Shown: positions 17,590 to 40,947 of the stretch, piece after piece | Layout: every line of letters starts with the position of its first letter | Numbering within the stretch: the stretch's first letter is position 1 | Source: an uncultured Candidatus Saccharibacteria bacterium | GTDB lineage: Bacteria; Patescibacteriota; Saccharimonadia; Saccharimonadales; Saccharimonadaceae | Direction of reading: 5' to 3' | Length of the DNA: 64,000 nucleotides | Assembly: GCA_964584145.1 (NCBI GenBank) | Contig: CAZOYU010000002.1 | Coordinates: forward strand, 19,956 to 83,955 | Notes under the pieces: generated by a model | Database searches by the model: none | What the model was told of the DNA's origin: nothing | Seen by the model: only the letters and a program-made list of their open reading frames with translations | Translations under genes and position numbers: made by a program

Positions 17590-18342
17590 ATGAGCTCAAA
17601 TAATCACCAATCTATTAATGAGCCAAATCAAGCCCCCGCACCTGATGATGTGTCGCTTCTTACTCCACCGAGTAACGACATCTCATCTGCGGATTCCGAG
17701 GTGAAGTTCAAGAGCGAAGATATTTCTAAGAAAAAACATACTCATTTCTTCCTCCATGTCAAAGAAGATGAAGATTCCGCAAAGGCCGCCCTGCGCCAAG
17801 CCAAAGCTGATAAGCGTCGCCGCACCTGGCGCCGTCATTGGCTGAAATTTTCCCTTGCTGGTGTTCTTGCACTTGCCGTTTTGATTGGCGGCGGCATCTA
17901 TATTAAGCACGTTGTTGATACTAAGGTTCAAGAAACCGCCGAAGCTGAAGCACTAGAGATTACTATTGCCGCCACATCGGCTGCCGGTGACAAAATTGTT
18001 GAAATTCGTAATTTGATGTATTCTGGTTCGCCTACCGCTCTTGACGACGTTAGAGATGCCTACGAAGACGCCATTTCTAACTCTGACGATATTATAGAGC
18101 GTCGCACTTTGGAGATCAGCTATGTTGAATATCTAACTTTTTTTGAAAAGCGGTATGCTGAAGCGCTCGAAAAACTTAATGTTTATGTTGAGCAATATGA
18201 AGATAAGGACCAATGCATAATTATTAATAGCTACATTGATATTTACATTGGCCTCGAAGACACTGAAAACATTGAAAAATATGAGGAACTTCGCGCGCAA
18301 AAATGTGCTACGGGTGAAAGCGACAATGAAGACTATCTCTAA
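17590..18342 (+). CDS. cassette protein A1: bitopic membrane protein with disordered/basic cytoplasmic head, one TM helix and an acidic helical ectodomain
   Basis: 250 aa. Motifs KSEDISKK..HFFLHVKEDEDSAKAA, basic stretch KRRRTWRRHW, TM LAGVLALAVLIGGGIYI, then a helical Asp/Glu/Tyr-rich C-terminal domain. Same architecture as A2 and A3. Confidence 0.85.
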   Translation: MSSNNHQSINEPNQAPAPDDVSLLTPPSNDISSADSEVKFKSEDISKKKHTHFFLHVKEDEDSAKAALRQAKADKRRRTWRRHWLKFSLAGVLALAVLIGGGIYIKHVVDTKVQETAEAEALEITIAATSAAGDKIVEIRNLMYSGSPTALDDVRDAYEDAISNSDDIIERRTLEISYVEYLTFFEKRYAEALEKLNVYVEQYEDKDQCIIINSYIDIYIGLEDTENIEKYEELRAQKCATGESDNEDYL

Positions 18343-22123: not shown

Positions 22124-22148
22124 AAAATCACGAAATTTTGCTAAATAG

Positions 22149-22157
22149 TGCTAGTAT
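22149..22157 (+). promoter_or_regulatory. extended -10 (TGcTAGTAT) 6 nt upstream of the A2 ATG
   Basis: agTGcTAGTATataaacATG. No SD sequence and no terminator hairpin in the 40-nt B1-A2 spacer. Confidence 0.4.
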
Positions 22158-22163
22158 ATAAAC

Positions 22164-23249: not shown

Positions 23250-23255
23250 TGCAAA

Positions 23256-26200: not shown

Positions 26201-28169
26201 CACTATTCGTGTCGTTTCTTTCATTATGCGTAGCGGTAGTCCGGCCAGCGACATTTCCTATACTAACGGCACCGAAACGCTTAACTATTCCAATATTTGT
26301 CGAATTGCCGCAGGTGGCAATAGTACGCTCAGTTGCACTATTCTCAATAACGGCGAAACGGATAACACTTACGAAAAACGCTATGTCTTAAATGCCTCGA
26401 CCAAAGACCAGCTAGGCGGCACGCTGAACGACACTAGCTTGATTACTTCTAGTGTCGCTGATACTAACGATAGCAATATTGTCTTGTCGCGTTCTGGATC
26501 AGTCGTGATGAATAGTGTTTCTGTTGATGTGCCGGAAACCACTATCAATAATCAGCAGGGCAGCCTTCGTCTTGGTGATAAGGTTTGTATCGCGGTTGCG
26601 GCTTGGCCAAGCGACAGCCATAACCTCGGCGCTGCTACCTCCGTCGACAGCACTAACCAATCTGTCGCGCTGACTAGCTCTGGCTCCGGCTCGCAATGGG
26701 TCGTTTCTGTGCCATACTGTTCGACGGTCGCCAAAACACCAAGCTTTAGCGTAGAAGGCTCGCAGCTTTCCGTTTCCGGCGATGTTACGACTTCTAATGT
26801 AACTCACAACGGTCGTCGCTACGGTTCATGGACAGAATATGGTTTGCTCGCTGGTGGCACAGTTACGAATATGACTTCAGGCGCTGCTACCGCTTATATT
26901 GATGCTCAATCGCTCGTTGTAACTAGTGGCACGGAATATGTTCTTAAATATAGCGCCGCTAACCGCACCGCTAGCGCTACTAAAGCAGGCGCCAATAGTA
27001 AAACGGCTAGTGTTTGCCTTTATAATTCGCAGACTTATCTCAAAGATTACGATTGTAATAATGCAGGTGGTGCGTCTACGATCGTGACCGAAGATAGTAT
27101 CAACGATATTCTTGAACGTATCCGCGATGTTTATACCCGCAAGAATAGTACTAGCAATTATCATGAAGAAGCGGGCGTCAAACGCATTAATGACCTTCAA
27201 TATGCTTGGGACTACGACGGCTCTAGGACTGATATCAAGATTGATGTTAATGGTAAATCTTACTACGACCTCTCGCCGCGCAATGCTTATGCTTGTGAAT
27301 ATAGCGAAGACCTCGGCTACTATGTCCCGAACAGCAAAGATGCCGAGCGTGCTATTACTACCGACGGCAAGAAAACTGCGCCATTTTACTGCCTCTCTAA
27401 CGGTGCCCATTATTACTATGTCGAAGGTGATGCCTATATTGGCGCGCAGAGCGATAGTATCTATGGTCAGTACCTCAACTTTGTTGATGACCTTACTGGT
27501 AGCTCCGATCAAGAAACTTATCGCAACCAGACCATGGTTGTACACGCTACTGGTACGCTCGTGATTGACACCAATCTTATTGTCGATAGTTACTATTCGG
27601 CTTACAACGGCTATCACCGCGTCGATCTCTTTACGGATATTCAGCAGATTCCGCAGATTATCATTATCGCCGACAAGATTCAAATCACCTCTAGCGTGTC
27701 CCGTATTGATGCTTGGCTAGTCGCGGATGGGCTCGACAGCGGCAATGGCGAGATTAATACCTGCGCCTACGAAAACTTTAATGCCTTTAAGCGCGGCGAA
27801 TATATCAAACAGGCGGGCAACGGTAGTCTCTTAAGCGCCAAGAATTGTGACCGCACGCTCATGTTTAATGGCCCAGTTTTCGCTAAGAGTATTATTCTGA
27901 ATCGCACTGCTGGTGGCGGTACTAAGGTGCTTGGCGCAGCCGAGCAATGGAATAGCTCTAGCGGTGGCGGTCATGGTCGCTATGACTGGTGGTATGGCCA
28001 TGTTCAGCAGAGTTCTGGCCAAACGCTCGCCATTGACGCAACCACTTATGCTCAGCGTGGCGAAATCTTCAACCTTCGTGCTGACACTTATCTTTGGGCC
28101 TACTATCAAGCTCAACGTAACGGCATTCTTACGACCGTCTTCACCAAAGAATTGCCAACGCGTTATTAG
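23256..28169 (+). CDS. cassette protein B2: giant secreted protein (1637 aa), unknown family
   Basis: Signal peptide MTNNFLRVVAVVATITICSLFLWTDNANA/A. Starts 6 nt after the A2 stop, with a GGAGAAGGA SD-like site inside the A2 3' end. N-domain shared with B3, three ~100-aa Cys-bracketed modules, then the common core. Confidence 0.92.
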   Translation: MTNNFLRVVAVVATITICSLFLWTDNANAARTSCDSSKIFINTSLIANSITDASIQDIGALDGTRDSSIVGTGAWACAETSRGIFFIADSVDHDVNTGKYIINLDVKVNPESTRNTAIAMGMINYKQESVIDQNVYAINIKYCTQDFEYSFVYGKGYDNVECPDGRDDAGGIINQYGSIVQRQGANDNVSSGAYAYWSEPKYTSSTINVDGTVLSAKLNNTTFKHDNVVRTINNGNTYVIKLWQWRCWSYDMYNYNKYNKDACASNPILLAVDMSWSTTFAGKVDNINVSGASYNSSDGKYYTDNDEIDIKYNYYLARNNNGPDKSVQGGYTTYISSGDGANGNVKLSKNSGWAWVASRTESGRSLSYGDNTICGRIGYFVTVSSEGGGKNKDWTESSKCITVHKYSWYEFEGQVVPYVNDVSKSSGSTVWIDGNSAKLKFVHQLKRTGSAQTRYGTSKSSNLSSIFSIQNWYGTSSLTNNNSWQTQKTSGDSDSTVNIAKSDSGSTYCQYLKYYKTVRDDSKDFRNQEEKSACVTLKRYKTNFTGKTTVTVNGKEYSDGDTITVESSDGKIPVTVPVVFKHTVTRNSESTPPSAPSNKKSSIAISTSGTSGCRSGDPCGTNTSAEDTDELASGASYTKTQSINTKVYPDQTIKICQQMTYKNQIWGSSESTATADQVCVTLKMDKALCSDNTQFGIHDGQNLGSLSISKNVNNSDSNTVVKSGAKNTGSTEITMWAKPGDNISFTHDSCAAADLPNQFHNNGKTTTYNVSAGRSSSSGSLDATGYLFGNSIGSEPYTSSSATIATTNANSGTGPFKSGQYAATYKSPSTKSDTDYTCTTDYYGNSHQSKTNYYQITSDVAKTSTLTSARCNSYVKTINNSTDYAIGSNVGTSFSQTLSWTDLWISNDSVDSSHNGSKTASIKGTVSVPYNYYLYPYVGNNSTSTTQTVTPGASLKANVYLPVMQRENKQVGETYATHTKPTTIRVVSFIMRSGSPASDISYTNGTETLNYSNICRIAAGGNSTLSCTILNNGETDNTYEKRYVLNASTKDQLGGTLNDTSLITSSVADTNDSNIVLSRSGSVVMNSVSVDVPETTINNQQGSLRLGDKVCIAVAAWPSDSHNLGAATSVDSTNQSVALTSSGSGSQWVVSVPYCSTVAKTPSFSVEGSQLSVSGDVTTSNVTHNGRRYGSWTEYGLLAGGTVTNMTSGAATAYIDAQSLVVTSGTEYVLKYSAANRTASATKAGANSKTASVCLYNSQTYLKDYDCNNAGGASTIVTEDSINDILERIRDVYTRKNSTSNYHEEAGVKRINDLQYAWDYDGSRTDIKIDVNGKSYYDLSPRNAYACEYSEDLGYYVPNSKDAERAITTDGKKTAPFYCLSNGAHYYYVEGDAYIGAQSDSIYGQYLNFVDDLTGSSDQETYRNQTMVVHATGTLVIDTNLIVDSYYSAYNGYHRVDLFTDIQQIPQIIIIADKIQITSSVSRIDAWLVADGLDSGNGEINTCAYENFNAFKRGEYIKQAGNGSLLSAKNCDRTLMFNGPVFAKSIILNRTAGGGTKVLGAAEQWNSSSGGGHGRYDWWYGHVQQSSGQTLAIDATTYAQRGEIFNLRADTYLWAYYQAQRNGILTTVFTKELPTRY
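27513..28169 (+). repeat. paralogous C-terminal module of B2 (ETYRNQT ... ELPTRY)
   Basis: FTDIQQIPQIIIIADKIQITSSVSRIDAWLVA ... QRGEIFNLRADTYLWAYYQAQRNGILTTVFTKELPTRY. Confidence 0.9.
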
Positions 28170-28204
28170 CGATTAACCCTCTCAGAGAGGCTAACCAAAA
28201 TTCC

Positions 28205-28235
28205 AAAAAGCTAGCATTTTTTCGCTAGCTTTTTT
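28205..28235 (+). terminator. rho-independent terminator after B2
   Basis: AAAAAGCTAGCattttttcGCTAGCTTTTT. Sequence-related to the rny terminator at 17535-17562. Confidence 0.8.
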
Positions 28236-28248
28236 AGTTCGATTTCAG

Positions 28249-28254
28249 TAAGAT
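28249..28254 (+). promoter_or_regulatory. -10-like box (TAAGAT) 6 nt upstream of the A3 ATG
   Basis: cagTAAGATataagcATG. No SD sequence. Confidence 0.4.
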
Positions 28255-28260
28255 ATAAGC

Positions 28261-29052
28261 ATGAGCGCCAATGATTCTCGGCCTTTTGGCGAGGTGAATC
28301 CAGATTCTTCCACAGATTCCTCTGCGGATTCTCCACATTTTGTTTCCCCGAATATTACTGATGCTGCCGAAGAGGAGCAAAAGGCGCAGGCGCAAGCCGC
28401 CGCCGAGCAGAGGCAAGCCGAAACTGTGAATATTGATGGTGTTCCGATTGCTGATCAGGATATTCAATACAAAACGCGCGATATTGTTGCTAAGAAAGCT
28501 GATGCGAAATATTTCGTGAATGTTAAGGAAGAGGAGGATGCTGCGAAAGCGCAGGCGCATCAAGCTAAAGCGGCTCAGCACAAAACTCGTTGGCGTCGCT
28601 ATGGCCGCCCAATTTTGGTTGTCGCTATTGTTCTTATTCTCGCTGCTGCTGGCGGTTTTGTCGCAAGATATTTTCTCGATCGGCAGGACGAAGAGGCAAA
28701 AGCGGCTGTTGAGGAATTGCTCTATGAAGCGGCTGATTGTTTAGAGGCGTCCAATCTCGATTGTGCGAATGAATACTATGAGAAGGCGCTCAGTCGTGCG
28801 GCGACGGATGAAGAGCGTTCGTTTGTCTATCTTCATTACTCTCAGTCCCTCGATGGGCTTATGCGTGATCAAGAATCAAATCGAATATATGAGTATGCGC
28901 TCAAGGCCTATGAGTTGAATCCTAATGACCGCAGTATAGTTTGGTGGCTTGTTGATGTTTATAATAATCGCGGCGAGGAAGATAAAGCGAAGGAATTTGA
29001 AGAGAAGCTAGAAGCATTGCCGGTAGATGAAGATGAATATGGAGAAGGGTGA
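28261..29052 (+). CDS. cassette protein A3: bitopic membrane protein, paralog of A2
   Basis: 263 aa. MSANDSRPFGEVNPD, VNIDGVPI, YKTRDIVAKK, YFVNVKEEED, RWRRYGRP + TM ILVVAIVLILAAAGGFV, then a TPR-like ectodomain (YYEKALSRAATDEERSFVYLHYSQ...ALKAYELNPNDRSIVWWLVDVY). Confidence 0.88.
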   Translation: MSANDSRPFGEVNPDSSTDSSADSPHFVSPNITDAAEEEQKAQAQAAAEQRQAETVNIDGVPIADQDIQYKTRDIVAKKADAKYFVNVKEEEDAAKAQAHQAKAAQHKTRWRRYGRPILVVAIVLILAAAGGFVARYFLDRQDEEAKAAVEELLYEAADCLEASNLDCANEYYEKALSRAATDEERSFVYLHYSQSLDGLMRDQESNRIYEYALKAYELNPNDRSIVWWLVDVYNNRGEEDKAKEFEEKLEALPVDEDEYGEG

Positions 29053-29053
29053 A

Positions 29054-32000
29054 ATGAAGATTAAAATAAAGACCGTTGCCTTGATTGCTATCGTTGCTAT
29101 TTTTTCTACGACGCTTTTGGGGTTTGGTAAAAATGAAGCTTATGCGAAGGCCTGGACTCTGTCTAGATCTAACGATAGGGGTAATTGTCTAACTGGCGGT
29201 GGCCGTATTGATGTTGTTTCTAAAGCGAAGAAAAACGGCAAAACAGTAATCAGAGATATTGGTGACTTGGGCAATTTTGGTCAATTGGGTAATGAGAATA
29301 AATACGATGAATATAGTGGCGGTTGGGCATGCGCACGATGGTACGAAACGGGGAATATGTGGCATGGAATTATGTTCATAGCTAGCAGTGTCGAGGAGAC
29401 CGGAAGCGGGAATAATAAACAGTACAAAATCAACGTCGATGTCAGTGTTAATTTGAAAAGTAGCAATAACACGGCAATTGCTATGGGCATGGTTCATACT
29501 GGTAGCAATGCAACGAATAAGGCTATAAATATCGAGTATTGTACGCATTATTATGCTAATACAGGGTGGTGCACGGATAAGACTAAAGGTGCAGATGGTA
29601 TTATATCTAGTTACGACAAAACCGTGCTTCGGCAGAACTCACGCAACCGGCCAACTAGTAGCTATAGTTACTGGACCCCGCCAATTCACGCGTTAGCGAC
29701 CAGTTCGGAGCAATCATTTATAACAATTGATGGTCCAAGGCTTGCTGAAAAAATGCAAGAAACGGAGTTTGCTACAAAGAACGTTAAATATTTAGATGAC
29801 GGTTATACCGCAATCGTGCTTTATCAATACCGCTGCTGGTCGAAGAATGGTGGCACTGGAGAATGTGGCGTAAGTCCGATAGTTTTAATATTGGACACTA
29901 GCGGTACGACTGATGATCCTCCAAGCTCAACTTCTTGCGACTCCACGAACTCATATAGCAATAGCGGTAAATCCGGCGTCCGTAAAAACGGTGGCAGCAT
30001 CGCTTATACGAATAATAATTCTGGCACAGTTAGTACTTGGGCGAAACCAGGAGATTCTATTCAATTTACGCACACAACTTGTGCTGCCGCCCAAAAGCTT
30101 ATTGATGACAATCAGGCGTATCTGGGTTCTTATGATTCTAACTATACCGTTTCTGCAAGTACCACCAACGGCACCAATGGCAGAGGCTATATATTTGGTA
30201 ACGACTTGAGCGGTAACTCGTCCGCTAGTATCCCAAGTTCCACGCTAAAGAATAATGAGTATGCTTATACTGCGAATTCGCCGAGCGATGACGCTGGATC
30301 TACATATAGCTGCGATGGTGTTTACGATGGTTTCATATCGGGCCATTATCAGATTCCGGATTTGAATATTAGGAGTGACAAATGTGGGGCATCTAGGAAA
30401 ACTGTTGCGTCTGATGCTGGCAATACAATTACGCAAACATTAGCATGGCGCGACTTCGACATTAAATGGCAGACTATCTATCATGACGCCGAAATAGATG
30501 AGGCGGGCAACGTTATTAAGCCGAGAACATCTGAAAATATCCCTTATGTAAATAGTTCTACCGACTACTCCACTAGCGCCAGCGTCTATATTCCATACAA
30601 CTACATTCTCAAGCCCTATATTGAAGGAAATAAAAATGACACAGGGGATAAAAGCCAAACCGCTACCATCGGTGGCAAATACGACGTTACTGCTTATGTT
30701 CCCGTTGATGTTCGTAAAAATAAACAAGTTGGTGATACTTATGCTACTAGCACGAAAGATACCAAAATTAAAATTGTGTCGTTCGTATTGGATTCTAGTA
30801 GCCAGCCAACCAGTAGCGTTACTTATCACGCTAATAATGGCGATGCGGGGGCGAGCAGTATTTGTAGATACGCCGCTGCCAGCGGAAATGTTAAGCATTG
30901 TGCAAATATCGCCGATGAGACTATTACGCTTAACCAAAATACTTCCGGTAATCTCAGCGGCACGCTAGGCAATGAAGCTTCGATTAGTGAGGGTGGTTCT
31001 AAGCTTGTTCTTAATGACGGCATCGAGGCTTCTGTACCAAAAAATAACATCAGTCTCGGCGATAAAATTTGTGTCGCAGTCGCCACCTGGCCGAGCGATA
31101 GCCATAATCTTGGCGATGCTGCAACTGTCGATAGCTATGACCAGAGTGTTGCTCTCACTAATAGTGCGGGAAGTAACGCTAAATGGGCCGTCTCTGCGCC
31201 AAGCTGCGCCACCATCACGAAGCGCCCAATCTTTAGCGTCGAAAGTTCGCAACTTTCCGCTACTGGCACAATTAACTCCTCGACCTATACGCGTGATAAG
31301 CTCACCTTCAGCTCTTGGGCAGAATATAGCATTGCCACCTCTGAGGAAAATGGCGTTGAAGATACCGCTTCCGGCGCAGCTACTGCCTATATCGACGCGC
31401 TCAATCTTAATTATCGCTATAATCCTTACGAGCCTAAATACGCCATTGCTTCCAGGGAAGTTAATCTTGCCAATACGCGTGCTGGCACAAAAAGTACCAG
31501 AACCTTTACTGCGCAAACTATGCTCAATTCTGGTAATGGCAGCCCCGGTGGCGCTACCACGCTTGAGCTCGCTGAGAATATCGAAAAATTCTATACATCT
31601 ATCGAAAATATCTATACGCGCAAAGGCAAGACTAAGACTCAATCTGGTGCCGGTATTGCAAATTTCAATGACCTTAGCGAACTAAAAGGCTCCAAAAAAC
31701 TAACCGTCAAGAATAATTATTATGATCTCTCGATTGGGTCCTCGTATGCTTGCGTTTACGATGAAAATAAAGGTTATTATGTCGCCTATGATAGCGACGC
31801 TACGCTCGGCAAGGATAAAAAAGGCAACCCAACTGCGCCATATTATTGTCTAAGCAATGGCTCCAAGTATTATCATGTCGAGAATGCTAATGCTTATATT
31901 GGTGGTGGCGGCGAGAGAAATAGTGGCGGCTATACTCAATTTCGTCTTACTGTGAACGATCTTGATGGTTCTGGCGGTCAAGAAACTTTCCGCAACCAAA

Positions 32001-32536
32001 CTACGGTTATTCATGTTGAGGGTACGGTTGTAATTGATACTAACTTCGTCATTGCCTATAACTATGGTGGTAGGATGCTGGATTATTTCACTGATATTCA
32101 GCAGATTCCGCAAGTTATCATCATTGCCGACAATATCGATATTACTAACAATGTCTCGCGCATCGATGCATGGCTGATTGCTAAAAACAAGATTAATACT
32201 TGTGCCTACGATAACTATAGTGGCTTCATGAAAGGGAACTATATCAGTAGCGCGGCTAATGGCGGCCTAAACGCGAACCGCTGCAATAAAGAACTAGTTA
32301 TCAATGGCCCAGTCGTTGCTAATGAGATCACACTTAACCGTACCGCTGGCGCCGGCACAACTCCGGCCGAATACTACAGTAAAAAAGCCTCTCTCTCCGT
32401 CGAAGATGCCTATTATGCCCAACGCGGCGAAATCTTTAATCTCCGTTCCGACGCCTATCTTTGGGGTTATTATCAAGCTCAGCGTAATGGCATTTTGACT
32501 ACAGTCTATTCGAAAGAATTGCCGACCAGATATTAA
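29054..32536 (+). CDS. cassette protein B3: giant secreted protein (1160 aa), unknown family
   Basis: The ATG at 29054 lies 1 nt after the A3 stop, preceded by GGAGAAGGG. It gives signal peptide MKIKIKTVALIAIVAIFSTTLLGFGKNEAYA/K. N-domain shared with B2, followed directly by the common core. Confidence 0.9.
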   Translation: MKIKIKTVALIAIVAIFSTTLLGFGKNEAYAKAWTLSRSNDRGNCLTGGGRIDVVSKAKKNGKTVIRDIGDLGNFGQLGNENKYDEYSGGWACARWYETGNMWHGIMFIASSVEETGSGNNKQYKINVDVSVNLKSSNNTAIAMGMVHTGSNATNKAINIEYCTHYYANTGWCTDKTKGADGIISSYDKTVLRQNSRNRPTSSYSYWTPPIHALATSSEQSFITIDGPRLAEKMQETEFATKNVKYLDDGYTAIVLYQYRCWSKNGGTGECGVSPIVLILDTSGTTDDPPSSTSCDSTNSYSNSGKSGVRKNGGSIAYTNNNSGTVSTWAKPGDSIQFTHTTCAAAQKLIDDNQAYLGSYDSNYTVSASTTNGTNGRGYIFGNDLSGNSSASIPSSTLKNNEYAYTANSPSDDAGSTYSCDGVYDGFISGHYQIPDLNIRSDKCGASRKTVASDAGNTITQTLAWRDFDIKWQTIYHDAEIDEAGNVIKPRTSENIPYVNSSTDYSTSASVYIPYNYILKPYIEGNKNDTGDKSQTATIGGKYDVTAYVPVDVRKNKQVGDTYATSTKDTKIKIVSFVLDSSSQPTSSVTYHANNGDAGASSICRYAAASGNVKHCANIADETITLNQNTSGNLSGTLGNEASISEGGSKLVLNDGIEASVPKNNISLGDKICVAVATWPSDSHNLGDAATVDSYDQSVALTNSAGSNAKWAVSAPSCATITKRPIFSVESSQLSATGTINSSTYTRDKLTFSSWAEYSIATSEENGVEDTASGAATAYIDALNLNYRYNPYEPKYAIASREVNLANTRAGTKSTRTFTAQTMLNSGNGSPGGATTLELAENIEKFYTSIENIYTRKGKTKTQSGAGIANFNDLSELKGSKKLTVKNNYYDLSIGSSYACVYDENKGYYVAYDSDATLGKDKKGNPTAPYYCLSNGSKYYHVENANAYIGGGGERNSGGYTQFRLTVNDLDGSGGQETFRNQTTVIHVEGTVVIDTNFVIAYNYGGRMLDYFTDIQQIPQVIIIADNIDITNNVSRIDAWLIAKNKINTCAYDNYSGFMKGNYISSAANGGLNANRCNKELVINGPVVANEITLNRTAGAGTTPAEYYSKKASLSVEDAYYAQRGEIFNLRSDAYLWGYYQAQRNGILTTVYSKELPTRY
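31982..32536 (+). repeat. paralogous C-terminal module of B3 (ETFRNQT ... ELPTRY)
   Basis: FTDIQQIPQVIIIADNIDITNNVSRIDAWLIA ... QRGEIFNLRSDAYLWGYYQAQRNGILTTVYSKELPTRY. Confidence 0.9.
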
Positions 32537-32566
32537 AAGAGAAGTTTTAAAAATCGAAAACGTTAA

Positions 32567-32574
32567 TGTATAAT
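32567..32574 (+). promoter_or_regulatory. extended -10 (TGTATAAT) 6 nt upstream of the pseudopilin-1 ATG at 32581
   Basis: aaTGTATAATattactATGagtaaa. No SD sequence. The alternative ATG at 32566 lies inside the box itself. Confidence 0.45.
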
Positions 32575-32580
32575 ATTACT

Positions 32581-33549
32581 ATGAGTAAAAATGGTGGTAG
32601 GGACGTAGCGAGCGGCTTTACGATTATTGAAGTTATGCTTGTGCTTGCCGTGACGGGCTTTCTCTTCATTGGTATCCTTGGCGGCATGAGTGGCAGTCTC
32701 GCTCGCCAGCGCTACAAGGACGCCGTGCAGGATACTGCTGATAGTCTCCGTCGCATGTATTCTTATGTTGTTGATACGCAGGTCTATACACGCGAAAATG
32801 ACTCTGTCTGTTATGGTCTTACTTCTGATGCTATCGGAAATAGCAGTTTAATCTCTAATAGTAAAAATACTGGCCGTGGCCGCAGCGATTGTGTCGTTTA
32901 TGGCCTAGTTGCAACCATTGCCAATAGCCATATTGAATTCACTGAATTGGTTGGCAAAGAATACGAGGTCGTGCGTGAGGAAGTTGCCGATAAAGACAAA
33001 AAAGATACCGACACTATGAAAGACATTGAAGTCCTACAACTCGCTGGCGCAAATAATGTCGTCGCATCCGCTAAGCAGAATGGTACTTGCTCGAATATTG
33101 GCCTAGTTAATCTGCTCGAGTCTTCTGATTCACGCTGGGGTACGCGCATTCTCGATACGGATGGCAATGAACTCGCCACCACGATTCTAATCTTCCGTTC
33201 GCCGCAGTCTGGCGTCATCCGCACTTATGTTATGGACGGTACACCGAAGAATGGCGACAATATTATCCGCTATGACGAATTTAGCGAAGAGACGCATGAC
33301 TGCACTGAAAAGAATATACTCGACACTTATGGTATCAATGAATACATTGGTAAATATGAGACCGAAGGCGACGAGAAGGTTTTCAAAAGCAATTTTACCG
33401 AAAAAGAATTGAAGATCTGTATTAGTAGTGGTGATACGGGCGTGTATGACGGCCGCATGCGTATGATTAAGATCGCGAAAGGTGGTCGCAGCTCATCTGC
33501 TATCGCGCTGATTGACATGGATGACGAGGACGCAAACGAATGCAACTAG
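32581..33549 (+). CDS. type IV prepilin-like protein 1 (oversized, 322 aa)
   Basis: Class III signal MSKNGGRDVASG/FTIIEVMLVLAVTGFLFIGIL: Gly at -1, Phe at +1, Glu at +5, then a hydrophobic helix. Confidence 0.85.
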   Translation: MSKNGGRDVASGFTIIEVMLVLAVTGFLFIGILGGMSGSLARQRYKDAVQDTADSLRRMYSYVVDTQVYTRENDSVCYGLTSDAIGNSSLISNSKNTGRGRSDCVVYGLVATIANSHIEFTELVGKEYEVVREEVADKDKKDTDTMKDIEVLQLAGANNVVASAKQNGTCSNIGLVNLLESSDSRWGTRILDTDGNELATTILIFRSPQSGVIRTYVMDGTPKNGDNIIRYDEFSEETHDCTEKNILDTYGINEYIGKYETEGDEKVFKSNFTEKELKICISSGDTGVYDGRMRMIKIAKGGRSSSAIALIDMDDEDANECN

Positions 33550-34364
33550 ATAAAGTTAAGCCAGGTGATACGATTATTGAAGTAGCTCTTTCGATGGCTG
33601 TCTTTGGAGCCGTGGCGCTGTTCTCGGTCGAAATGATGAATAGTGGTCTCAATAAAATTCAACGCACGCTCGAAACTACTATGGCGCGCACTGCGATCGA
33701 TTCGCAGACCGAAGCGTTGCGTTTTATTCATAATAACTATCTCGCTGAGCGCAACTTCGCTGATAGCACGGCGCAATTTCAGCGTATCTGGGAGCAACTC
33801 AAGGGAGCATCGCGCAATCCTCGTGACATCAAAGCTGGCGATACTGTAAACAGCTTCGATGTTAATACTTACACTTCTTGTGACGAGATTTATAGTAATG
33901 CAGGCCAGATTAAACAATATAAAGCATTTGTGATTAATCCGCGCTACATTGTGCCAGACTACGGTGATAACGTTAGTTACAATGGTGTTAAATATACTTA
34001 TGGAAATGGTTCTAACTCGGACGATACCGGCATTCTCAAGAATATAATTATTGGCGGCAATGATACCGAAGAACAGAGCAGCTTGATGACTTATAGTCAG
34101 ATTTATCCGCGAATTATCTATAGCGCCAAAAAAGGCGATAGTAAAAATACCGACAATAGTTCCCTTAAAGAAGCCAACATCTACCAAGTGGCCGAAAGTG
34201 TGCAAGGTCTTTGGGACATCGTTGTCTATAGTAATGAACGCAATAAAGATCGTTCCGAATATTTTGATTTTTACATTAACACTTGTTGGAATGCTGCTGG
34301 TACACACGTTCCGTCGACCATTACGACTATCGTCCGCCTATATAACCCAGAGGTGATTGAATAA
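33540..34364 (+). CDS. type IV pilin-like protein 2 (274 aa)
   Basis: MQLDKVKPG/DTIIEVALSMAVFGAVALF: Gly at -1, Glu at +5, hydrophobic helix. Overlaps the end of gene 1 by 10 nt. Confidence 0.75.
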   Translation: MQLDKVKPGDTIIEVALSMAVFGAVALFSVEMMNSGLNKIQRTLETTMARTAIDSQTEALRFIHNNYLAERNFADSTAQFQRIWEQLKGASRNPRDIKAGDTVNSFDVNTYTSCDEIYSNAGQIKQYKAFVINPRYIVPDYGDNVSYNGVKYTYGNGSNSDDTGILKNIIIGGNDTEEQSSLMTYSQIYPRIIYSAKKGDSKNTDNSSLKEANIYQVAESVQGLWDIVVYSNERNKDRSEYFDFYINTCWNAAGTHVPSTITTIVRLYNPEVIE

Positions 34365-35227
34365 TGAAACACAAGAAAGCCTTCACGATTATCGAATTCG
34401 TCCTCGCTATGGGGCTATTTTCCACTATGCTGCTGATGATTGCCGTGCTCACCATTCGCATTACCGGCATCTATCAAAAAGGTCTCTCAATTCGTTCCGT
34501 CAATGCTGTTGGTAGGGAATTGATCGACGACATTACTAAAATCGTTCAAAGTTCACCGATTCAGGAATCAATCAATCCAGAAGTATCATCATCTGGTAAC
34601 GTTACCGCTAGCAACATTGTCGCTAAGCGCTCTGAATATTTTACTTATTACACGGGTTCAGACCAGACTAAGCAAGAGACTCAGGGCAAAACTCAGAGCT
34701 CTGGCCTCTTCTGTACGGGCTCATATACTTATATCTGGAATACTGCGCAAACTTTGACTACTTTCGAAAATAACGACGATGCAATTACAATTACTAATGA
34801 AACTGGCAAACATGTCTATAAATTTATTCGCGTGCCTGATTACGACCGTAGCTATTGCGCAAAATTCAACGAAGATAAGGCTAGTAATCGCACTTTCGAA
34901 ATCGCCGAAGACCAGATTGTCAATTTAATTAACGACGATGAATCCGACCTCGCCATTTATGATTTTACTGTCTTGCCGGCAACTCAGAGCGATACAACTG
35001 GCCATGCGCTTTACCCAATCAGTTTCATCCTCGCGACCAAGAAGGGCGGTATCAATATTTTGAGCAATGGCGATTATTGTTCTGGCCAAGAAGTTCCGTC
35101 CGATCTCAATAGTGAAGATTCGGAATACAATTCGATTGATTTTAATTATTGTGCCGTCAATAAATTTGATTTCGTTGTTCGCCAAACCGGCGAAGCAGAA
35201 GATGTAAATGGTTATGGTTCAAGATAG
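34364..35227 (+). CDS. type IV pilin-like protein 3 (287 aa)
   Basis: MKHKKA/FTIIEFVLAMGLFSTMLLMIAVL: Ala at -1, Phe at +1, Glu at +5. TAATG overlap with gene 2. Confidence 0.75.
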   Translation: MKHKKAFTIIEFVLAMGLFSTMLLMIAVLTIRITGIYQKGLSIRSVNAVGRELIDDITKIVQSSPIQESINPEVSSSGNVTASNIVAKRSEYFTYYTGSDQTKQETQGKTQSSGLFCTGSYTYIWNTAQTLTTFENNDDAITITNETGKHVYKFIRVPDYDRSYCAKFNEDKASNRTFEIAEDQIVNLINDDESDLAIYDFTVLPATQSDTTGHALYPISFILATKKGGINILSNGDYCSGQEVPSDLNSEDSEYNSIDFNYCAVNKFDFVVRQTGEAEDVNGYGSR

Positions 35228-35236
35228 AGGAGGTAT

Positions 35237-36799
35237 ATGATAACACAACCTAAAACCAAGCGGGGAGCAGCATCGATGTATGTCGTCATCTTTACGGCTA
35301 TGCTGTTAAGTATTATCGCGCTCAGCTTCGTGCGCATTATGCTGTCGGAAGCGCAGCAGACTAACAACTATAGCCTTTCCCAATCTGCTTACAACTCCGC
35401 TATGGCGGGCGTTGAGGATGCGAAAGTCATCTTACTCAAGTACCAAAACTGTCAGAGTACGAATAATCGCGTCGGTCGCGAAGAGTGCACGCGCATTTCG
35501 AACGCGCTCGAAGCCGAGGATGCTGAAGATAACTGCGACGTAATTCGTGAAGCGCGCGGTATTACGACTGGCGAAAAAGAAACCCTCATCTCCTCCTCTG
35601 AAACCAGCAACAAATCCATCGAGTCTACCGCCGAATCTATCGACCAGGCCTATACTTGCGTCAAGGTTAATGTCGAAAGTTCCGACTATATCGCTAAATT
35701 AAACAAGAACAATTCCTCGAAGATTATTCCTGTGCGCGTGCGCGATACGGACGATAATGGCAATAGTATTAATAATATTAACCGCATCGTTGTTCAATGG
35801 TTTAGCGACGCCGATATGGAGAAGCTTAGCTCCAATGGTACTCGCAACATCGATACGACTATGTATCGCCTTGTCGGTAATAGCAGCACCGTCAACATTA
35901 CGCATATTAACCAAGATAGTGATGCTGCGGCTAATTATGCCGTGAATGATTTTAGCAGTCAAGCTACCGTTGCCCCTTATCTAAAAATTGAACTTTTCCA
36001 GACTAATGATGCGTTTGGTCTTAATCAATTTTATGCTTCTGATGGCACCACTACTAACCGCGGCACGCTTACGCTGCGCCCAACCAATAATGATGTTGGC
36101 GGTTCGGGCACGACTGGCTCTACGCATATTGGTAACACTCTAACAACTGGCTTTGCTGCTTCCGCTCAGAAAACTTATAATTTCCCGATGGACGTAAAAT
36201 GTACGCAGTTTAAGACGGACGGCACCGTTGCGAATGGTGAAAGTAGCTTTTCTTATGCTTGTACTGCCGATATTGTCATCCCAGATCCGGTCGTTTCCTT
36301 GGTCTATGATTACACGACTGATTCTTATCAAAACTATGCTAGCAATTCAAAGAGCCGCAACGCTACTACTATGTTCTTCCGCGTTAGTTTGCCATACCGT
36401 AATCCAGAAACTACTGTGCGCATTGCCTTAAAGAGCTGCAAGACCGACGACTCTAGTATTGCGAATTCTAGCAAAGCTAATGGTGGCTGCGATACTGTTA
36501 ACTTCTTTGGCGTGCAGCCAACCGTTGATTCAACCGGTCGCGCCGCCGACCTCTTCCGCCGTGTCGAATCGCGCCTCGAGATGGTTAATACTTATTTCCC
36601 ATATCCAGATAGCGCGCTTAGTGTAACGGGCAATGTGAACAAGAACTTCTGGGTCACCGACAACTGTTTCTCGCAGACGACCTACGTTGAGAATGGTAAA
36701 GTTATTACTGAAACATACTCCGCCAATGCCGAAGAGAGCTGGAGCACAGATACGCATAAATATAAGAAATGCTACAACTCTGGCGGTTCCTCTAAATAG
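35237..36799 (+). CDS. PilX-N-like pseudopilin/pilus-associated protein (520 aa)
   Basis: The N-terminus KRGAASMYVVIFTAMLLSIIALSFVRIML resembles the PilX N-terminal (RGxAL + hydrophobic helix) type. AGGAGG lies upstream. Large Ser/Thr/Asn-rich ectodomain. Confidence 0.7.
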   Translation: MITQPKTKRGAASMYVVIFTAMLLSIIALSFVRIMLSEAQQTNNYSLSQSAYNSAMAGVEDAKVILLKYQNCQSTNNRVGREECTRISNALEAEDAEDNCDVIREARGITTGEKETLISSSETSNKSIESTAESIDQAYTCVKVNVESSDYIAKLNKNNSSKIIPVRVRDTDDNGNSINNINRIVVQWFSDADMEKLSSNGTRNIDTTMYRLVGNSSTVNITHINQDSDAAANYAVNDFSSQATVAPYLKIELFQTNDAFGLNQFYASDGTTTNRGTLTLRPTNNDVGGSGTTGSTHIGNTLTTGFAASAQKTYNFPMDVKCTQFKTDGTVANGESSFSYACTADIVIPDPVVSLVYDYTTDSYQNYASNSKSRNATTMFFRVSLPYRNPETTVRIALKSCKTDDSSIANSSKANGGCDTVNFFGVQPTVDSTGRAADLFRRVESRLEMVNTYFPYPDSALSVTGNVNKNFWVTDNCFSQTTYVENGKVITETYSANAEESWSTDTHKYKKCYNSGGSSK

Positions 36800-36810
36800 G
36801 GAATGCGTAC

Positions 36811-36841
36811 AAAAATATCCCCCGCAATCGGGGGTATTTTT
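36811..36841 (+). terminator. rho-independent terminator closing the pilin-like operon
   Basis: aaaaatatCCCCCGcaatCGGGGGtattttt. Confidence 0.8.
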
Positions 36842-36853
36842 AAATTCAAATTT

Positions 36854-36940
36854 TGGTGCCCGCGACTGGAGTTGAACCAGCACGCCCGTGAAGGCACTAG
36901 CACCTGAAGCTAGCGCGTCTGCCAATTCCGCCACGCGGGC
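36854..36940 (-). tRNA. tRNA-Leu(CAG)
   Basis: 87-nt class II tRNA on the reverse strand: acceptor GCCCGCG/CGCGGGC, anticodon arm CTAGC-TTCAGGT-GCTAG, long variable arm, encoded CCA. Confidence 0.92.
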
Positions 36941-36980: not shown

Positions 36981-36989
36981 TGTTATAAT
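36981..36989 (+). promoter_or_regulatory. extended -10 (TGtTATAAT) 6 nt upstream of the rnhA ATG
   Basis: gaTGtTATAATataaacATG. Confidence 0.45.
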
Positions 36990-36995
36990 ATAAAC

Positions 36996-37412
36996 ATGTC
37001 TTATTACTACACAGACGGTAGCGCTAGTCCCAATCCGGGCCCAGGGGGCTATGCAGTTATTTGTGATGGCGCACCGGTTGCGCTCGGTCGCGAGGCGGAT
37101 TCCACTAATATTCGCATGGAGGCACAAGCACTGATTGCTGCTTATCGAATCGCTCAAGCTGGCGACACGATTTATACTGATAGCGAATTTTGGGTGAATG
37201 TTGTGACTAAATGGGCTGCTAGTTGGCAGAAAAATGGCTGGACTAAAAAATCTGGCCCCATCAGGAACCTCGAACTCGTAAAAGATCTTTATGCGCTCTA
37301 TCTCGCGCATCCCGACGTAAAACTAACCTGGACGCGTGGCCATGTTGGCACTGATGGCAACGAACTTGCCGATGAATGGGCCAATAAAGCTCGCGCTGGC
37401 GTTAGCTTATAG
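36996..37412 (+). CDS. rnhA: ribonuclease HI
   Basis: 138 aa. YTDGSASPNPGPGGYA, NIRMEAQAL, TDSEF and GNELADEWA match the RNase HI DEDD core. The ORF-track start 36888 overlaps tRNA-Leu, so the ATG at 36996 is used. Confidence 0.9.
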   Translation: MSYYYTDGSASPNPGPGGYAVICDGAPVALGREADSTNIRMEAQALIAAYRIAQAGDTIYTDSEFWVNVVTKWAASWQKNGWTKKSGPIRNLELVKDLYALYLAHPDVKLTWTRGHVGTDGNELADEWANKARAGVSL

Positions 37413-38416: not shown

Positions 38417-38574
38417 TTAAATATCTTTCCTTAACTTATTATTTTCAATTGATGTATATTATATTCTAAAAAGCGAAAATTGTAAAGTGTGCATATGGGA
38501 AGGGCTTGCAAAAGCAAAAAGATTATGCTAATCTGTACTCAAATAAGGTCAAAATAAACAAGAAAAACATCAAA

Positions 38575-40947
38575 ATGGCAGATAAAAAATCGCAGGCTAA
38601 AACTAGCATCATCGATCAAGTCGCCGAGCGTATCTTGACTAGTGATAATGTGCTAGTTGCGCTTTCTAAAGATCCGAGCGTCGATGAACTTTCGGCTGCT
38701 CTCGGCTTGACATTCATATTAGACAAAATGGGCAAATATGCCACTGCGATTTTCTCCGGCGCTGTGCCAAACGCCATTGAATTTTTGGAGCCAGAAAAGA
38801 CTTTTGAGACTAATACGAATAGCCTGCAAGATTTTATTATTGCCCTCGACAAAGAGAAGGCTGACCACCTTCGCTACAAAATCGATGGCGATTATGTCAA
38901 AGTTTTTATCACACCATATAAGACCACGATTGAAGAGAGTGATATCGAATTCAGCCATGGTGACTATAATGTTGACCTCGTGGTTGCGCTCAATGTCGCT
39001 AACGCCGCCGACCTCGACTCTGCCTTGACGGAGTATGGTCGCATCATGCACGATGCGAGCTCGATTAATATTCATGCCGATGTTGCTGGCAATTTCGCCG
39101 ATCTCGAATGGGGCGACCCAAACGCATCCTCGATTTCCGAAATGATCTATTGTCTGTCCGAAAAACTCCGCGAAGAAGAAGCGCGCAAACTGGTTGATAA
39201 GCCAATTGCAACCGCTTTGATGGCAGGTATCGTTGCGGCAACCAATCGCTTTTCAAACGAACATACTAAACCAGAAACACTTAGCATTGCTAGCAAGCTG
39301 ATGACTGCTGGCGCCGACCAACAATTGATTTCTTCGAGTATTCCAGTCGATATTCTCACGACGGATGTTGTTGATGCAAATGAAGATGCCGAAGCTGCCG
39401 CCGATGTGACCACTGCCGAAGCAGCCACTAAAACGGCTCCTGCTGAGTCTGATACTGTTAGTGTCGATGAATTGGAAGCGCTTGAAAAAGACTCCGCTGA
39501 TAAAACTGCTGCTCCGGCTGCCACTAAAGCCGACCAAGTCGCCACTGAAGCCACTGCTGCCACTACGGAGCCAGCCGAGCCGGCCCCTGCACCTGCGCCT
39601 AAACCTGCTAAGAAAGCCGATCCAACCGCTTTGGAAATTCGCCATGGCGCCGTCGATTTTGAATTAGACGAGAACGGAGAAGAGAAGATTGAACCGGAGC
39701 CGGAATCTGAATCCGAATCCAAGTCTGAATCTGAACCGGAGCCAGTAGCTGCTCCCGTTGAGGTCGAGCCAGCTACTGAGGCTGCTCCAGCCGCCGTCGC
39801 TCCTGAGGCTGTTCCTGAAATTACTCCTGAAGCGGCCGCTCCCGCTGCGCCAATTATTCCAGTTATTGAGTCTAAAAAAGATCATGTTAGCCTAGCACCA
39901 CTCACTGCGCCAGCTGCTGTCGCGTCGGCTCCGGTCGCCGCTGCGCCTACTGCAGAAATGCCAGTAGCTGATGCGCCTGCGTCTATTCCAGTTCCAGAGC
40001 CTGTGCCTGTTCCTGAGCCGACACCGGTCACTGAGCCGACTTTGCCAACTGCCGAATCCGTGATTGTTGCGCCGGAAGTCTCGCCTGAAGAAGCTGCCCG
40101 CGAAACACATGTTGCTGAACCGCTCAACGAATCGGATTTAAATCCAGAAGATAATGCCGCTGAAGATGCTATCGATGCTGCGCTTCAAAAAGCTGCCGCT
40201 GCCGCTGCGCGTCAACAGGCCGAAGCAACTGCGCAACTCGACCAAATGGTTGCCGCTAGTATGCCTACTACTGCAGCCGCACAAAATCCGGTTATGACCG
40301 AACTTGCTACTGCCTCGGGTATTAAAAATATTGCGCCGCTCAACCAAAATGTCCAAGCACCAGCTCTACCAAAAGATTATTCTGCCATGATGAACGAGGC
40401 ACTCGCTGAGCCACTCGTCGCCGAGCCGGTTCAGGCGCCCGTCGAAGCCGCGCCCGTCACTGCGCCGCAAATGCCGGGTGTAACAGCCGCACCCGTAGCC
40501 GCACCTGCGACTGCTATACGAGTGCCTGCGCCACAGGCCGCTGCGCCAGTTGAATATGCCAATGCTTTACCTATGCCTGATCCAAATGGCATTCTGCCAC
40601 CTGCGCCCGCGCCTTTTGCGCCAGAGGCCTCGCTACCTGTCGCCAGCCCTGCTGATTTACCTACTGCACAAGCTTATGCTGAGCAAATTCAGGCCACTAA
40701 TCCAATGGTACAATCTCAGCCAGCCGCTCCTGTTGCTGTGCCGACTATGCCTGAGCCAGTTTTGCCAGTTGAAGCTTCTGTTGCGCCGATTGCGCCAGCT
40801 GTCCCTGAAGATCAGCCCACTCTCAGCGCTGGTAATAGCCAATATTATGGCCAAAGCGCCAGTGCCGCCGTCCAGGGTGTAAATCCGGTAATGCAAGACC
40901 AGATTTATCCGTCCGATCCGAGTGCATATCATATTCCAGGGATGTAA
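38575..40947 (+). CDS. degenerate DHH-like N-terminal domain fused to a ~500-aa Pro/Ala/Glu-rich low-complexity region
   Basis: 790 aa from the ATG at 38575 (the ORF-track TTG 38506 is less likely). The N-terminal ~290 aa is NrnA/DHH-like in layout but lacks the DHH catalytic residues by eye. The remainder is PAPEPV/ESESE-type sequence. Confidence 0.55.
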   Translation: MADKKSQAKTSIIDQVAERILTSDNVLVALSKDPSVDELSAALGLTFILDKMGKYATAIFSGAVPNAIEFLEPEKTFETNTNSLQDFIIALDKEKADHLRYKIDGDYVKVFITPYKTTIEESDIEFSHGDYNVDLVVALNVANAADLDSALTEYGRIMHDASSINIHADVAGNFADLEWGDPNASSISEMIYCLSEKLREEEARKLVDKPIATALMAGIVAATNRFSNEHTKPETLSIASKLMTAGADQQLISSSIPVDILTTDVVDANEDAEAAADVTTAEAATKTAPAESDTVSVDELEALEKDSADKTAAPAATKADQVATEATAATTEPAEPAPAPAPKPAKKADPTALEIRHGAVDFELDENGEEKIEPEPESESESKSESEPEPVAAPVEVEPATEAAPAAVAPEAVPEITPEAAAPAAPIIPVIESKKDHVSLAPLTAPAAVASAPVAAAPTAEMPVADAPASIPVPEPVPVPEPTPVTEPTLPTAESVIVAPEVSPEEAARETHVAEPLNESDLNPEDNAAEDAIDAALQKAAAAAARQQAEATAQLDQMVAASMPTTAAAQNPVMTELATASGIKNIAPLNQNVQAPALPKDYSAMMNEALAEPLVAEPVQAPVEAAPVTAPQMPGVTAAPVAAPATAIRVPAPQAAAPVEYANALPMPDPNGILPPAPAPFAPEASLPVASPADLPTAQAYAEQIQATNPMVQSQPAAPVAVPTMPEPVLPVEASVAPIAPAVPEDQPTLSAGNSQYYGQSASAAVQGVNPVMQDQIYPSDPSAYHIPGM

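Follow-up and report, generated by a model that had tools for sequence, protein, structure and literature searches.

We analysed a 64-kb stretch of a Saccharibacteria (TM7) chromosome (the window), and in it a block of four pilin-like genes, pil1 to pil4. All four lie on the + strand. pil1 (32581-33549, 322 amino acids (aa)) and pil3 (34364-35227, 287 aa) encode prepilin-type minor pilins, pil2 (33540-34364, 274 aa) encodes a pilin-like protein, and pil4 (35237-36799, 520 aa) encodes a minor pilin of the PilX/GspK type that lacks Glu5 and has a beta-rich extension. By position pil1 is GspH/FimU-like, pil2 GspI-like and pil3 GspJ-like, and the putative counterparts of pil1 to pil4 in other Saccharibacteria are PilV1, PilZ1, PilW1 and PilX1, respectively. 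The genes are tightly packed, with a 10-nt overlap between pil1 and pil2, a 1-nt overlap between pil2 and pil3 and a 9-nt gap between pil3 and pil4. They stand immediately behind three cassettes, each made of a gene for a membrane protein (A) and a gene for a giant secreted protein (B). A first-pass annotation, made by reading the sequence, had described four tightly spaced or overlapping genes here, and the same four open reading frames (ORFs) and coordinates were recovered. With the closest other species (L008) the pilins share 87-90% identity. The four genes are confirmed as real and under strong purifying selection, with a ratio of nonsynonymous to synonymous substitution rates (dN/dS) of 0.05-0.07 against that species, at a dS near saturation.

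The N-termini of the first three proteins are those expected of prepilins. pil1 has a predicted leader ending in VASG before FTIIEVMLVLAV (leader MSKNGGRDVASG, mature start FTIIEV), pil2 the predicted leader MQLDKVKPG before DTIIEVALSMAV (mature start DTIIEV), and pil3 the predicted leader MKHKKA before FTIIEFVLAMGL (mature start FTIIEF). The N-terminus of pil4, which contains KRGAASMYVVIFTAMLLSIIAL, reads KRGAASMYVVIFTAMLLSIIALSFV. In a six-frame scan of the window the prepilin motif occurred at three places only, the starts of pil1, pil2 and pil3, against a rough chance expectation of ~0.005 such motifs at the starts of long ORFs.

Relatives of pil4 were sought in one genome per GTDB species and were present in at least 526 species genomes. 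The 596 pil4 homologues include some named PilX by NCBI or JGI, and every named homologue is from Candidatus Saccharibacteria (TM7). Loci were compared in detail for the 80 best of these at least 526 genomes, the named ones being all Saccharibacteria, and the window proteins were placed in the fetched loci by tblastn, at identities down to ~25-35%. The order pil1-pil2-pil3-pil4 is kept in essentially every fetched locus. In one Nanosyncoccus genome (L053, 2178-9010) the block is split into pil3-pil4 and, a few kb off and in inverted orientation, B-pil1-pil2. Over the ~80 species-level loci the leaders are strongly conserved. With the slash marking the predicted cleavage site, the pil1 family reads [KR]G/FT[IV][IV]E (G-1, F+1, T+2 and E+5 invariant), the pil2 family [HR]G/DT[IL][IV]E (G-1, T+2 and E+5 invariant) and the pil3 family G/FT[IL]xE (F+1, T+2 and E+5 invariant), the window protein having Ala at -1 where most orthologues have Gly. 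The pil4 family shares the N-terminal motif [KR]GAxS[IM][YF]VVIFT, without Glu5. Each of the four families also has conserved Cys pairs. The first-pass annotation had quoted all four N-termini correctly as being of the type IV pilin class, and the conservation of the leaders agrees with that assignment. It had also called the proteins unusually large; their sizes are in fact the norm of their families, whose median lengths are 325, 276, 295 and 449 aa for pil1 to pil4, and are large only relative to proteobacterial minor pilins.

The link between these genes and a type IV pilus (T4P) comes from the Saccharibacteria genome UBA6175 (L086), in which the gene order is pilM-N-O-pilB-pilT-pilC-pilA-pilD-pil1-pil2-pil3-pil4. 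The eight upstream genes are mostly backed by Pfam: PilM, PilB (T2SSE and MshEN), PilT (T2SSE), PilC (T2SSF) and PilD (peptidase A24) were recognised by their domains, pilA encodes a 169-aa major pilin with an N_methyl match, and PilN and PilO are two ORFs assigned by position alone. The four pilin-like proteins that follow pilD are 262, 210, 235 and ~409 aa long. The window pil4 matches the L086 pil4 over its full length with 33% identity (E 2e-66), and the window pil1, pil2 and pil3 match their L086 counterparts by tblastn with E values of 4e-15, 6e-13 and 2e-24, respectively. Alignment of the window and L086 sets by hhalign was end to end, using profiles that include the L086 rows. In a second locus (L085) the ORF directly 5' of pil1 aligns with the C-terminus of the L086 PilD. 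The L086 arrangement is that of T4P locus one of Nanosynbacter lyticus TM7x, pilM1-N1-O1-B1-T-C1-A1-D-V1-Z1-W1-X1, in which PilW1 is 232 aa and PilX1 380 aa (Grossman et al. 2025, PMC12206443). The corresponding locus of Southlakia epibionticum is SEML1_0104-0116, with 245 aa for SEML1_0113 and 209 aa for SEML1_0114; of its minor pilins the first matches PF07963, and the second (an 'exported protein') and the fourth have no Pfam family (PMC10633639). Judged by sequence, then, the window genes are homologous to a machinery-linked set that has the published layout and sizes of locus one. pil4 was assigned to the PilX/GspK type by its missing Glu5, its last position in the operon and its homology to the X protein of locus one; for S. 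epibionticum, Wang et al. (2023, PMC10633639) used ECOD to class PilX1 and PilX2 as GspK-like. Collectively, these results suggest that the four genes are probably the core minor-pilin set of the Saccharibacteria T4P, that is, members of the PilV1-PilZ1-PilW1-PilX1 family and the positional counterpart of GspH-I-J-K and FimU-PilV-PilW-PilX. The first-pass annotation had arrived at a four-gene minor-pilin set whose machine is encoded elsewhere, and the H-I-J-K order, the Glu5-less last member and the L086 homologues placed after pilD all speak for it.

Several observations weigh against this assignment. None of the four window proteins reaches a curated Pfam or TIGRFAM cut-off. Against Pfam N_methyl (PF07963, cut-off 21.2 bits) pil1 scores 19.7 bits (E 6e-4) and pil3 17.3 bits (E 3.6e-3), and the score with TIGR02532 is 15.1 at a cut-off of 16.3. 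pil4 matches no Pfam or NCBIfam family, including PilX_N (PF14341) and GspK, and PilX_N was found in 2 of 18 pil4-family members, with a best E value of 0.011. The +1 residue of pil2 is Asp (rarely Glu in the family), conserved at D+1 in at least 90% of members, where the canonical residue is Phe or Met (window site 33564-33581). In comparisons of the family profiles with PDB sequences, the globular domains of all four families matched no solved structure. Modelling of pil4 with AlphaFold2 (AF2) from an alignment of 18 sequences gave a mean predicted local distance difference test score (pLDDT) of 66.8 and a predicted template modelling score of 0.64 and showed a 65-residue N-terminal helix (H9-74) followed by beta-rich domains. 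A Foldseek search of this moderate-confidence model against the PDB returned nothing below an E value of 0.08 and no pilin, and did not find a likeness to GspK (PDB 3CI0); the best hits, leukocidins and picornavirus capsids, had probabilities of at most 0.12 and are not significant. Finally, the 64-kb window holds no major pilin or further pilin in the six-frame prepilin-motif scan, and no pilB, pilC, pilD, pilM, pilN, pilO or pilT in Pfam scans of essentially all ORFs, so that for this genome the partner machine is only assumed. A GspE-type Walker A motif was likewise absent from the window in a motif scan, in agreement with the first-pass annotation, which had listed PilB, PilC, PilD and PilM-O as missing.

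At the family level the pilin signal is clearer. N_methyl is matched at E <= 0.01 by 33 of 43 pil1-family and 12 of 41 pil3-family members, and the L086 pil1 exceeds the N_methyl cut-off with 27.7 bits. The pil1 family profile matches the alpha1 helix of type IV pilins among PDB sequences (E 7e-4); for pil1 and pil3 the N-terminal helix alone was matched, and for pil2 and pil4 the profiles found no match there. pil2 had no match in the Pfam scan, as is the case for SEML1_0114 of S. epibionticum, and both were missed by the N_methyl models probably because of the Asp at +1. Similarity to Gsp and Pil families is limited to the N-terminal helix: pil1 matches the NCBIfam model of GspH (E 1.2e-3) and weakly that of ComGD, pil2 matches GspI (E 1.2e-4, under the cut-off) and pil3 matches ComGE (E 4.8e-3, sub-threshold).

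The weak ComGD and ComGE matches of pil1 and pil3 would fit a set whose main role is to supply the minor pilins of a Com-type pilus for DNA uptake (competence), analogous to ComGD-GG. So would the presence of comEC 17 kb upstream in the window, a gene that is syntenic with rny and the block in L088, as well as the natural competence of Saccharibacteria (PMC10633639) and the finding that T4P-2 is dispensable for competence of TM7x, which leaves T4P-1 as the candidate (PMC12206443). However, the Com matches score far under the cut-off and cover nothing beyond the N-terminal helix. S. epibionticum can do without comEC but not without the T4P genes, and the authors considered the essential role to be unrelated to competence (PMC10633639). 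Such a role would moreover add to pilus priming rather than supplant it. We therefore regard a mainly Com-type function as improbable. Far less probable still is a type II secretion system (T2SS)-like pseudopilus that secretes the B giants as cargo, for which the weak GspH and GspI matches and the adjacency of B could be cited. The B proteins have an ordinary Sec signal peptide, which makes the earlier suggestion of B as cargo unlikely, and the machinery-linked homologues of the four genes stand in one operon together with genes for the retraction ATPase PilT and for a major pilin and so belong to a true type IVa pilus. Saccharibacteria are not known to have an outer membrane or a secretin, which also counts against B as secretion cargo.

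The distance between the block and the machinery allows a further reading, in which the block is an extra, paralogous pseudopilin set that serves a specialised filament or forms an alternative tip for the A and B proteins, a short pilV1-X1-type set being kept beside pilD. Myxococcus xanthus, which is said to have three minor-pilin/PilY1 clusters, would be a precedent. The long-type proteins exceed the pilD-linked ones in size by 20-27%, they are far from the machinery in 88 of 90 loci and linked to B in about half of the loci, all of which would agree with a second set; the report of locus one in all Saccharibacteria examined (PMC12206443) could also imply a separate one. We nevertheless consider a paralogous set unlikely and favour one relocated set per genome in non-G1 lineages. 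This is because the window pil4 is as similar to that of L086 (33% identity) as to those of other distant long-type loci (30-34%), as would fit one orthologous family; because TM7x, which was exhaustively screened for pilins, has no extra four-gene block (PMC12206443); because the DivIC-oxidoreductase site of S. epibionticum, syntenic with the site at which G3-type genomes carry the block, is empty of it; and because locus one is described as 'highly divergent' in the G3 genome TM7-KMM (L072; PMC12206443), in which the pilin block lies elsewhere. In addition, no two of the 80 best loci come from one assembly.

Some candidates were rejected during this comparison. SEML1_0745 was considered as the S. 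epibionticum orthologue, as its length equals that of the pil1 orthologue of L080, but it is a zincin protease. The block does not correspond to locus three of TM7x (pilA2-X2-W2-V2-Z2): the sizes differ, PilX2 carries an RCC1 propeller and no T4P-2 machinery lies near recA in the window. T4P-2 is reported absent outside clade G1 (PMC12206443). L080 was considered as evidence for a third set within clade G1 and dropped, because its block and flanks hardly differ from those of the G3 genome Nanosyncoccus nanoralicus (L072). The same near-identity was seen for L083, L084 and L087, and the name that NCBI gives L080, 'Candidatus Nanosynbacter sp.' (clade G1), may be loose as to genus.

With the four genes taken as the probable core minor-pilin set, we propose a mechanism on the basis of established T4P and T2SS (GspHIJK, FimU-PilVWX) biology. 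By analogy, the four proteins would insert in the membrane via their N-terminal hydrophobic helices, and the prepilin peptidase PilD, encoded elsewhere, would cleave pil1, pil2 and pil3 after Gly/Ala(-1). A four-protein complex would then form with the Glu5-less pil4 at its apex, prime the polymerisation of the major pilin on the PilB/PilC/PilM-O machine and remain at the pilus tip, where the enlarged globular parts of pil1 to pil4 would be exposed. The gene family is already published as the T4P-1 minor pilins. Those of TM7x have been described as elongated or modular, and T4P-1 has been proposed to be a thicker, retractile pilus that drives twitching (PMC12206443). T4P-1 genes could not be deleted in TM7x (PMC12206443) and are class I essential by transposon sequencing (Tn-seq) in S. 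epibionticum (PMC10633639). Type IV pili are thus essential for epibiotic life in the Saccharibacteria studied, according to both the S. epibionticum Tn-seq (PMC10633639) and the TM7x knock-out attempts (PMC12206443). What is less ordinary is the location of the set away from the motor genes and behind the giants; in the literature searched, no publication was found on the relocated block or its tie to giant proteins.

Sequence signals suggest that in this lineage the set has been split from the machinery operon and forms its own transcription unit behind the three A-B cassettes. A promoter-like site precedes it at 32546-32574 (+ strand), with a -35 box TTTAAA, a 17-nt spacer and a -10 box TATAAT (32569-32574). 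It matches the consensus at 10 of 12 positions and is the sole intergenic site among the 10/12 matches here. Of 75 distinct regions upstream of pil1, 50 have TATAAT exactly 6 nt before an in-frame ATG, and several more have it at 7 nt. This conservation is consistent with promoter function, and the position of the -10 box 6 nt before ATG 32581 implies a leaderless or near-leaderless pil1 mRNA. A conserved in-frame 'M-Y-N-x-x-M' upstream of pil1 is explained by the -10 box being read as codons. The upstream ATG at 32566, which would give an ORF of 327 aa (32566-33549) rather than the 322 aa counted from 32581, is probably unused and was not accepted as the start of pil1, since the conserved -10 box is made up of the codons that follow it. 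The same layout, TATAAT or a close variant followed by 6 or 7 nt and an ATG, precedes not only pil1 (32566-32583) but also A1 (17577-17592), A2 (22152-22166), A3 (28249-28263) and rnhA (36984-36998) on the + strand and the sulfatase gene (13626-13643) on the - strand, which suggests that leaderless mRNAs are common in this genome. At the other end of the block, an intrinsic-terminator-like hairpin that could act on both strands (CCCCCGCAATCGGGGG plus a T-run, 36819-36844) would end the pilin operon before tRNA-Leu (36854-36940, - strand).

The three cassettes upstream occupy 17590-32536, all on the + strand. In cassette 1, A1 (17590-18342) encodes a small membrane protein and is preceded by a -10 box TATAAT at 17577-17582, and B1 (18326-22123) encodes a giant secreted protein of ~1265 aa counted from the ATG of the signal peptide, the mechanical ORF beginning at 18236. 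Cassette 2 consists of A2 (22164-23249), for a membrane protein of 361 aa, and B2 (23256-28169), for a giant of 1637 aa. In cassette 3, A3 (28261-29052) encodes a membrane protein of 263 aa and follows a -10-like TAAGAT, and B3 (29027-32536) encodes a giant of 1169 aa, or probably 1160 aa from the ATG at 29054, one base past the A3 stop. A hairpin after rny (~17536-17560, AAAGCTAGCG...CGCTAGCTTT) is near-identical to one after B2 (~28207-28235), and no hairpin was found between B1 and A2. Since the promoter-like box of an A gene comes next after each of the two near-identical hairpins, it seems that duplication of the A-B cassettes included a terminator-promoter unit. The A proteins have a disordered cytoplasmic N-terminus, one transmembrane segment and a helical ectodomain (~120 aa in A1). 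A3 evolves fast, with a pN/pS of ~0.5 against L008. An iterated hidden Markov model (HMM) search found A-like proteins in 55 of 90 loci; the distant members are weakly or not similar pairwise and were treated as architectural analogues only.

Each of B1, B2 and B3 has a Sec-type signal peptide, and over the C-terminal 870-1000 residues the three are 39-46% identical. All three end in EIFNLRxDxYLWxYYQAQRNGIxTTVYxxExPTRY directly before the stop codon, the C-terminus of B1 being EIFNLRPDAYLWGYYQAQRNGIITTVYSHEYPTRY. The final LPTRY was examined as a sortase signal and rejected, as no hydrophobic segment or charged tail follows it. The two parts of B3 evolve at different rates. Relative to the L008 orthologue, residues 1-326 are 41-46% identical with a pN/pS of 0.47-0.62, and residues 327-1169 are 76-83% identical with a pN/pS of 0.14-0.20. 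Word-indexed searches for B homologues returned 14 proteins with a single sequence and 11 with a profile, whereas an exhaustive search with the last 329 residues against representative clusters at 50% identity revealed a large family: 1,874 clusters matched, and for 1,078 the E value was 1e-10 or lower. In every case the match reaches the last residue of the hit protein, and hit proteins are up to 3,287 aa long. The universal part of the C-terminal domain is the last 150-180 residues (31990-32536 in B3), ending in TTYxRELxPRY-COOH. Every member that has been named is a hypothetical protein from Saccharibacteria.

Of 76 informative loci, ~40 have a B-like giant immediately upstream of pil1 on the same strand; their flanks vary, and this adjacency spans pil4 identities from 30 to 100%. 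In six loci (L044, L054, L056, L061, L068 and L074) the gap between B and pil1 is 0-11 nt. The pil1 upstream regions examined for five of these (L044, L054, L056, L061 and L074) have no -10 box, so that B and pil1 must be co-transcribed there. In the rearranged L053 locus B stays with pil1-pil2. In the other informative loci the upstream neighbour of pil1 is rny (~14 loci), an A-like gene of ~300 aa (G3-type genomes), pilD (L085 and L086) or small ORFs. Side observations concern the space before pil1 in other loci. In L041, L042, L049, L050, L057, L060, L063, L066, L070 and L071 the B-pil1 gap is 400-560 nt and holds an ORF of 131-183 aa that the iterated A-family HMM matches, and in L052, L055, L079 and L082 an ORF of 142-160 aa ending in KWMxFLF precedes pil1.

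These data bear on the relation between the giants and the pilins. We tentatively suggest that the B giants are Sec-exported surface proteins whose conserved C-terminal domain may dock to the tip complex or to the adjoining envelope, the fast-evolving N-terminus forming exchangeable host-binding modules. Comparative support for B riding on the pilin complex comes from the recurrent adjacency, from translational coupling in some lineages and from a conserved C-terminal and variable N-terminal part like that of PilY1. B would in that case be functionally analogous to PilY1/PilC, without homology. The first-pass annotation had pointed to the PilY1/PilC class of adhesins when it proposed the giants as cargo or tip-associated components; no sequence or fold relation of B to that class was found. 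An almost equally good reading is that A and B are an independent system of Sec-exported surface adhesins or envelope proteins at a recombination-prone site, their C-terminal domain anchoring to the cell wall or to A, and that the pilins work without B. This is a serious possibility, although somewhat short of an even chance. A number of results favour it and count against docking. B is not beside the block in about half of the loci, and one genome has two B genes with distant locus tags, of which at most one can adjoin the pilin block. B1-B3 match no Pfam or NCBIfam family and contain no PilY1/PilC domain. An AF2 model of B3 is beta-rich but of low confidence (pLDDT 59.7, with the tail 1140-1169 below 50); it shows no propeller, and Foldseek gave no significant hit in the PDB, the best being tandem-Ig adhesins, which are cell-wall-anchored. 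In the window, promoter-like boxes stand separately before A1, A2, A3 and pil1, and hairpins before A1 and A3. Against independence stand the persistence of the same-strand B-pil1 adjacency over pil4 identities of 30-100% and varied flanks, the six near-zero gaps, which imply co-translation, and the retention of B with pil1-pil2 in L053.

The link to the giants that had been proposed from the sequence thus stands in part: B directly precedes pil1 in about half of the informative loci, in six of them within 0-11 nt, and the pilin set is not specific to giants, as the ~14 rny loci, the G3-type genomes and L085/L086 demonstrate. As the first-pass annotation had remarked, no terminator was found in the 44 nt between the B3 stop and the pil1 ATG (32536-32581). 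Read-through from B3 into pil1 is possible; with its own promoter-like site, pil1 does not require co-transcription with B3.

A more far-reaching version of docking, which we consider doubtful, is that in most non-G1 Saccharibacteria the essential priming complex has left the motor operon and come to stand with tandem A-B cassettes, the B proteins being interchangeable tip or tip-proximal adhesins of a hyper-diverse Saccharibacteria-wide family. The conserved tail of B, disordered in the model of B3 alone, would plug into the pil1-pil4 complex, and the host bacterium that is grasped would depend on the N-terminal 300 residues, which evolve fast. If this were true, each of the three cassettes would give the one pilus a host-binding specificity of its own. 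The PilY1 principle would then have been reinvented without homology, and the host range of ultrasmall episymbionts would become accessible to genetics. For host recognition by Saccharibacteria, the B family with its C-terminal domain would be a concrete binding candidate. If the link to B is merely positional, the block is an ordinary, correctly recognised minor-pilin operon. In either case the pilus-priming minor-pilin set appears to be a phylum-wide four-gene module, which in many lineages outside the well-studied oral G1 clade no longer sits with the motor genes but is physically linked to hyper-variable giants, and annotators should seek T4P-1 minor pilins outside 'locus one'.

The remainder of the window has the following content. 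The genes 5' of the cassettes are recA-recX-tilS-G5-ksgA-metS-sulfatase-comEC-tsaE-tsaD-rny, after which come the three A-B cassettes and pil1 to pil4. 3' of the pilin genes lie tRNA-Leu, rnhA, CYTH and rpsT, then ftsH, murJ, gatB/A, murA and nrdDG. An 813-aa ORF after rpsT (38506-40947, + strand) matches no Pfam family and has a 759-aa counterpart at the same position in L005. The MurA protein (EPSP_synthase fold; 55752-57293, - strand) is fused to an N-terminal HTH_3 DNA-binding domain, a fusion also listed for S. epibionticum SEML1_0687. A 344-aa ORF at 61049-62083 (+ strand) matches Pfam T4SS_pilin (PF18895) weakly (E 1.5e-5, slightly under the cut-off) and may mark the edge of a type IV secretion gene cluster described in S. 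epibionticum.

Several known systems resemble the block to different degrees. One is the Verru_Chthon cassette (TIGR02596-TIGR02600), which consists of three prepilin-type proteins and one very large protein. It belongs to another phylum and likewise pairs prepilin-like proteins with a giant of unknown function; with its NCBIfam HMMs only pil3 gave a score, to TIGR02599 (13.4 bits at a cut-off of 256.5), and B gave no match. The minor-pilin clusters of Pseudomonas aeruginosa (FimU-PilV-PilW-PilX-PilY1) and Myxococcus xanthus and the GspH-I-J-K set likewise comprise four pilin-like proteins in H-I-J-K order, the last without Glu5. The P. aeruginosa and M. xanthus clusters also include a non-pilin of more than 1000 aa with a conserved C-terminal and a variable N-terminal part, and several adhesin paralogues occur per genome. 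In contrast to these organisms, the one in the window is monoderm-like without a secretin, and its B genes stand before the pilin genes rather than after them. B also differs from PilY1/PilC in having no beta-propeller signature, which in PilY1/PilC we take to be the C-terminal domain Pfam PF05567, and no fold match, as far as a low-confidence model allows. The modular minor pilins PilB and PilC of Streptococcus sanguinis (PMC8179133) and ComGD-GG are likewise from monoderms, with pilins enlarged by grafted modules and four minor pilins per system. Unlike the likeness in organisation, homology of the globular modules was not detectable, and the non-significant Foldseek hit to S. sanguinis PilC was obtained with B and not with the pilins.

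The closest relatives are PilV1-Z1-W1-X1 of TM7x and SEML1_0113-0116 (PMC12206443, PMC10633639). Unlike those sets, the window set and most non-G1 loci are not beside pilD, the window proteins are 20-35% longer, and the A and B giant cassettes precede them. The likeness to the published sets, which runs via the homology to L086 and via the published order and sizes, is otherwise extensive. They are from the same phylum and have the same four-gene order and the same Pfam pattern, in which genes 1 and 3 match N_methyl and genes 2 and 4 do not. In them, as in the window, the set ends with an X protein that lacks Glu5, is atypical in its signal peptide and carries a beta-sandwich-type extension.

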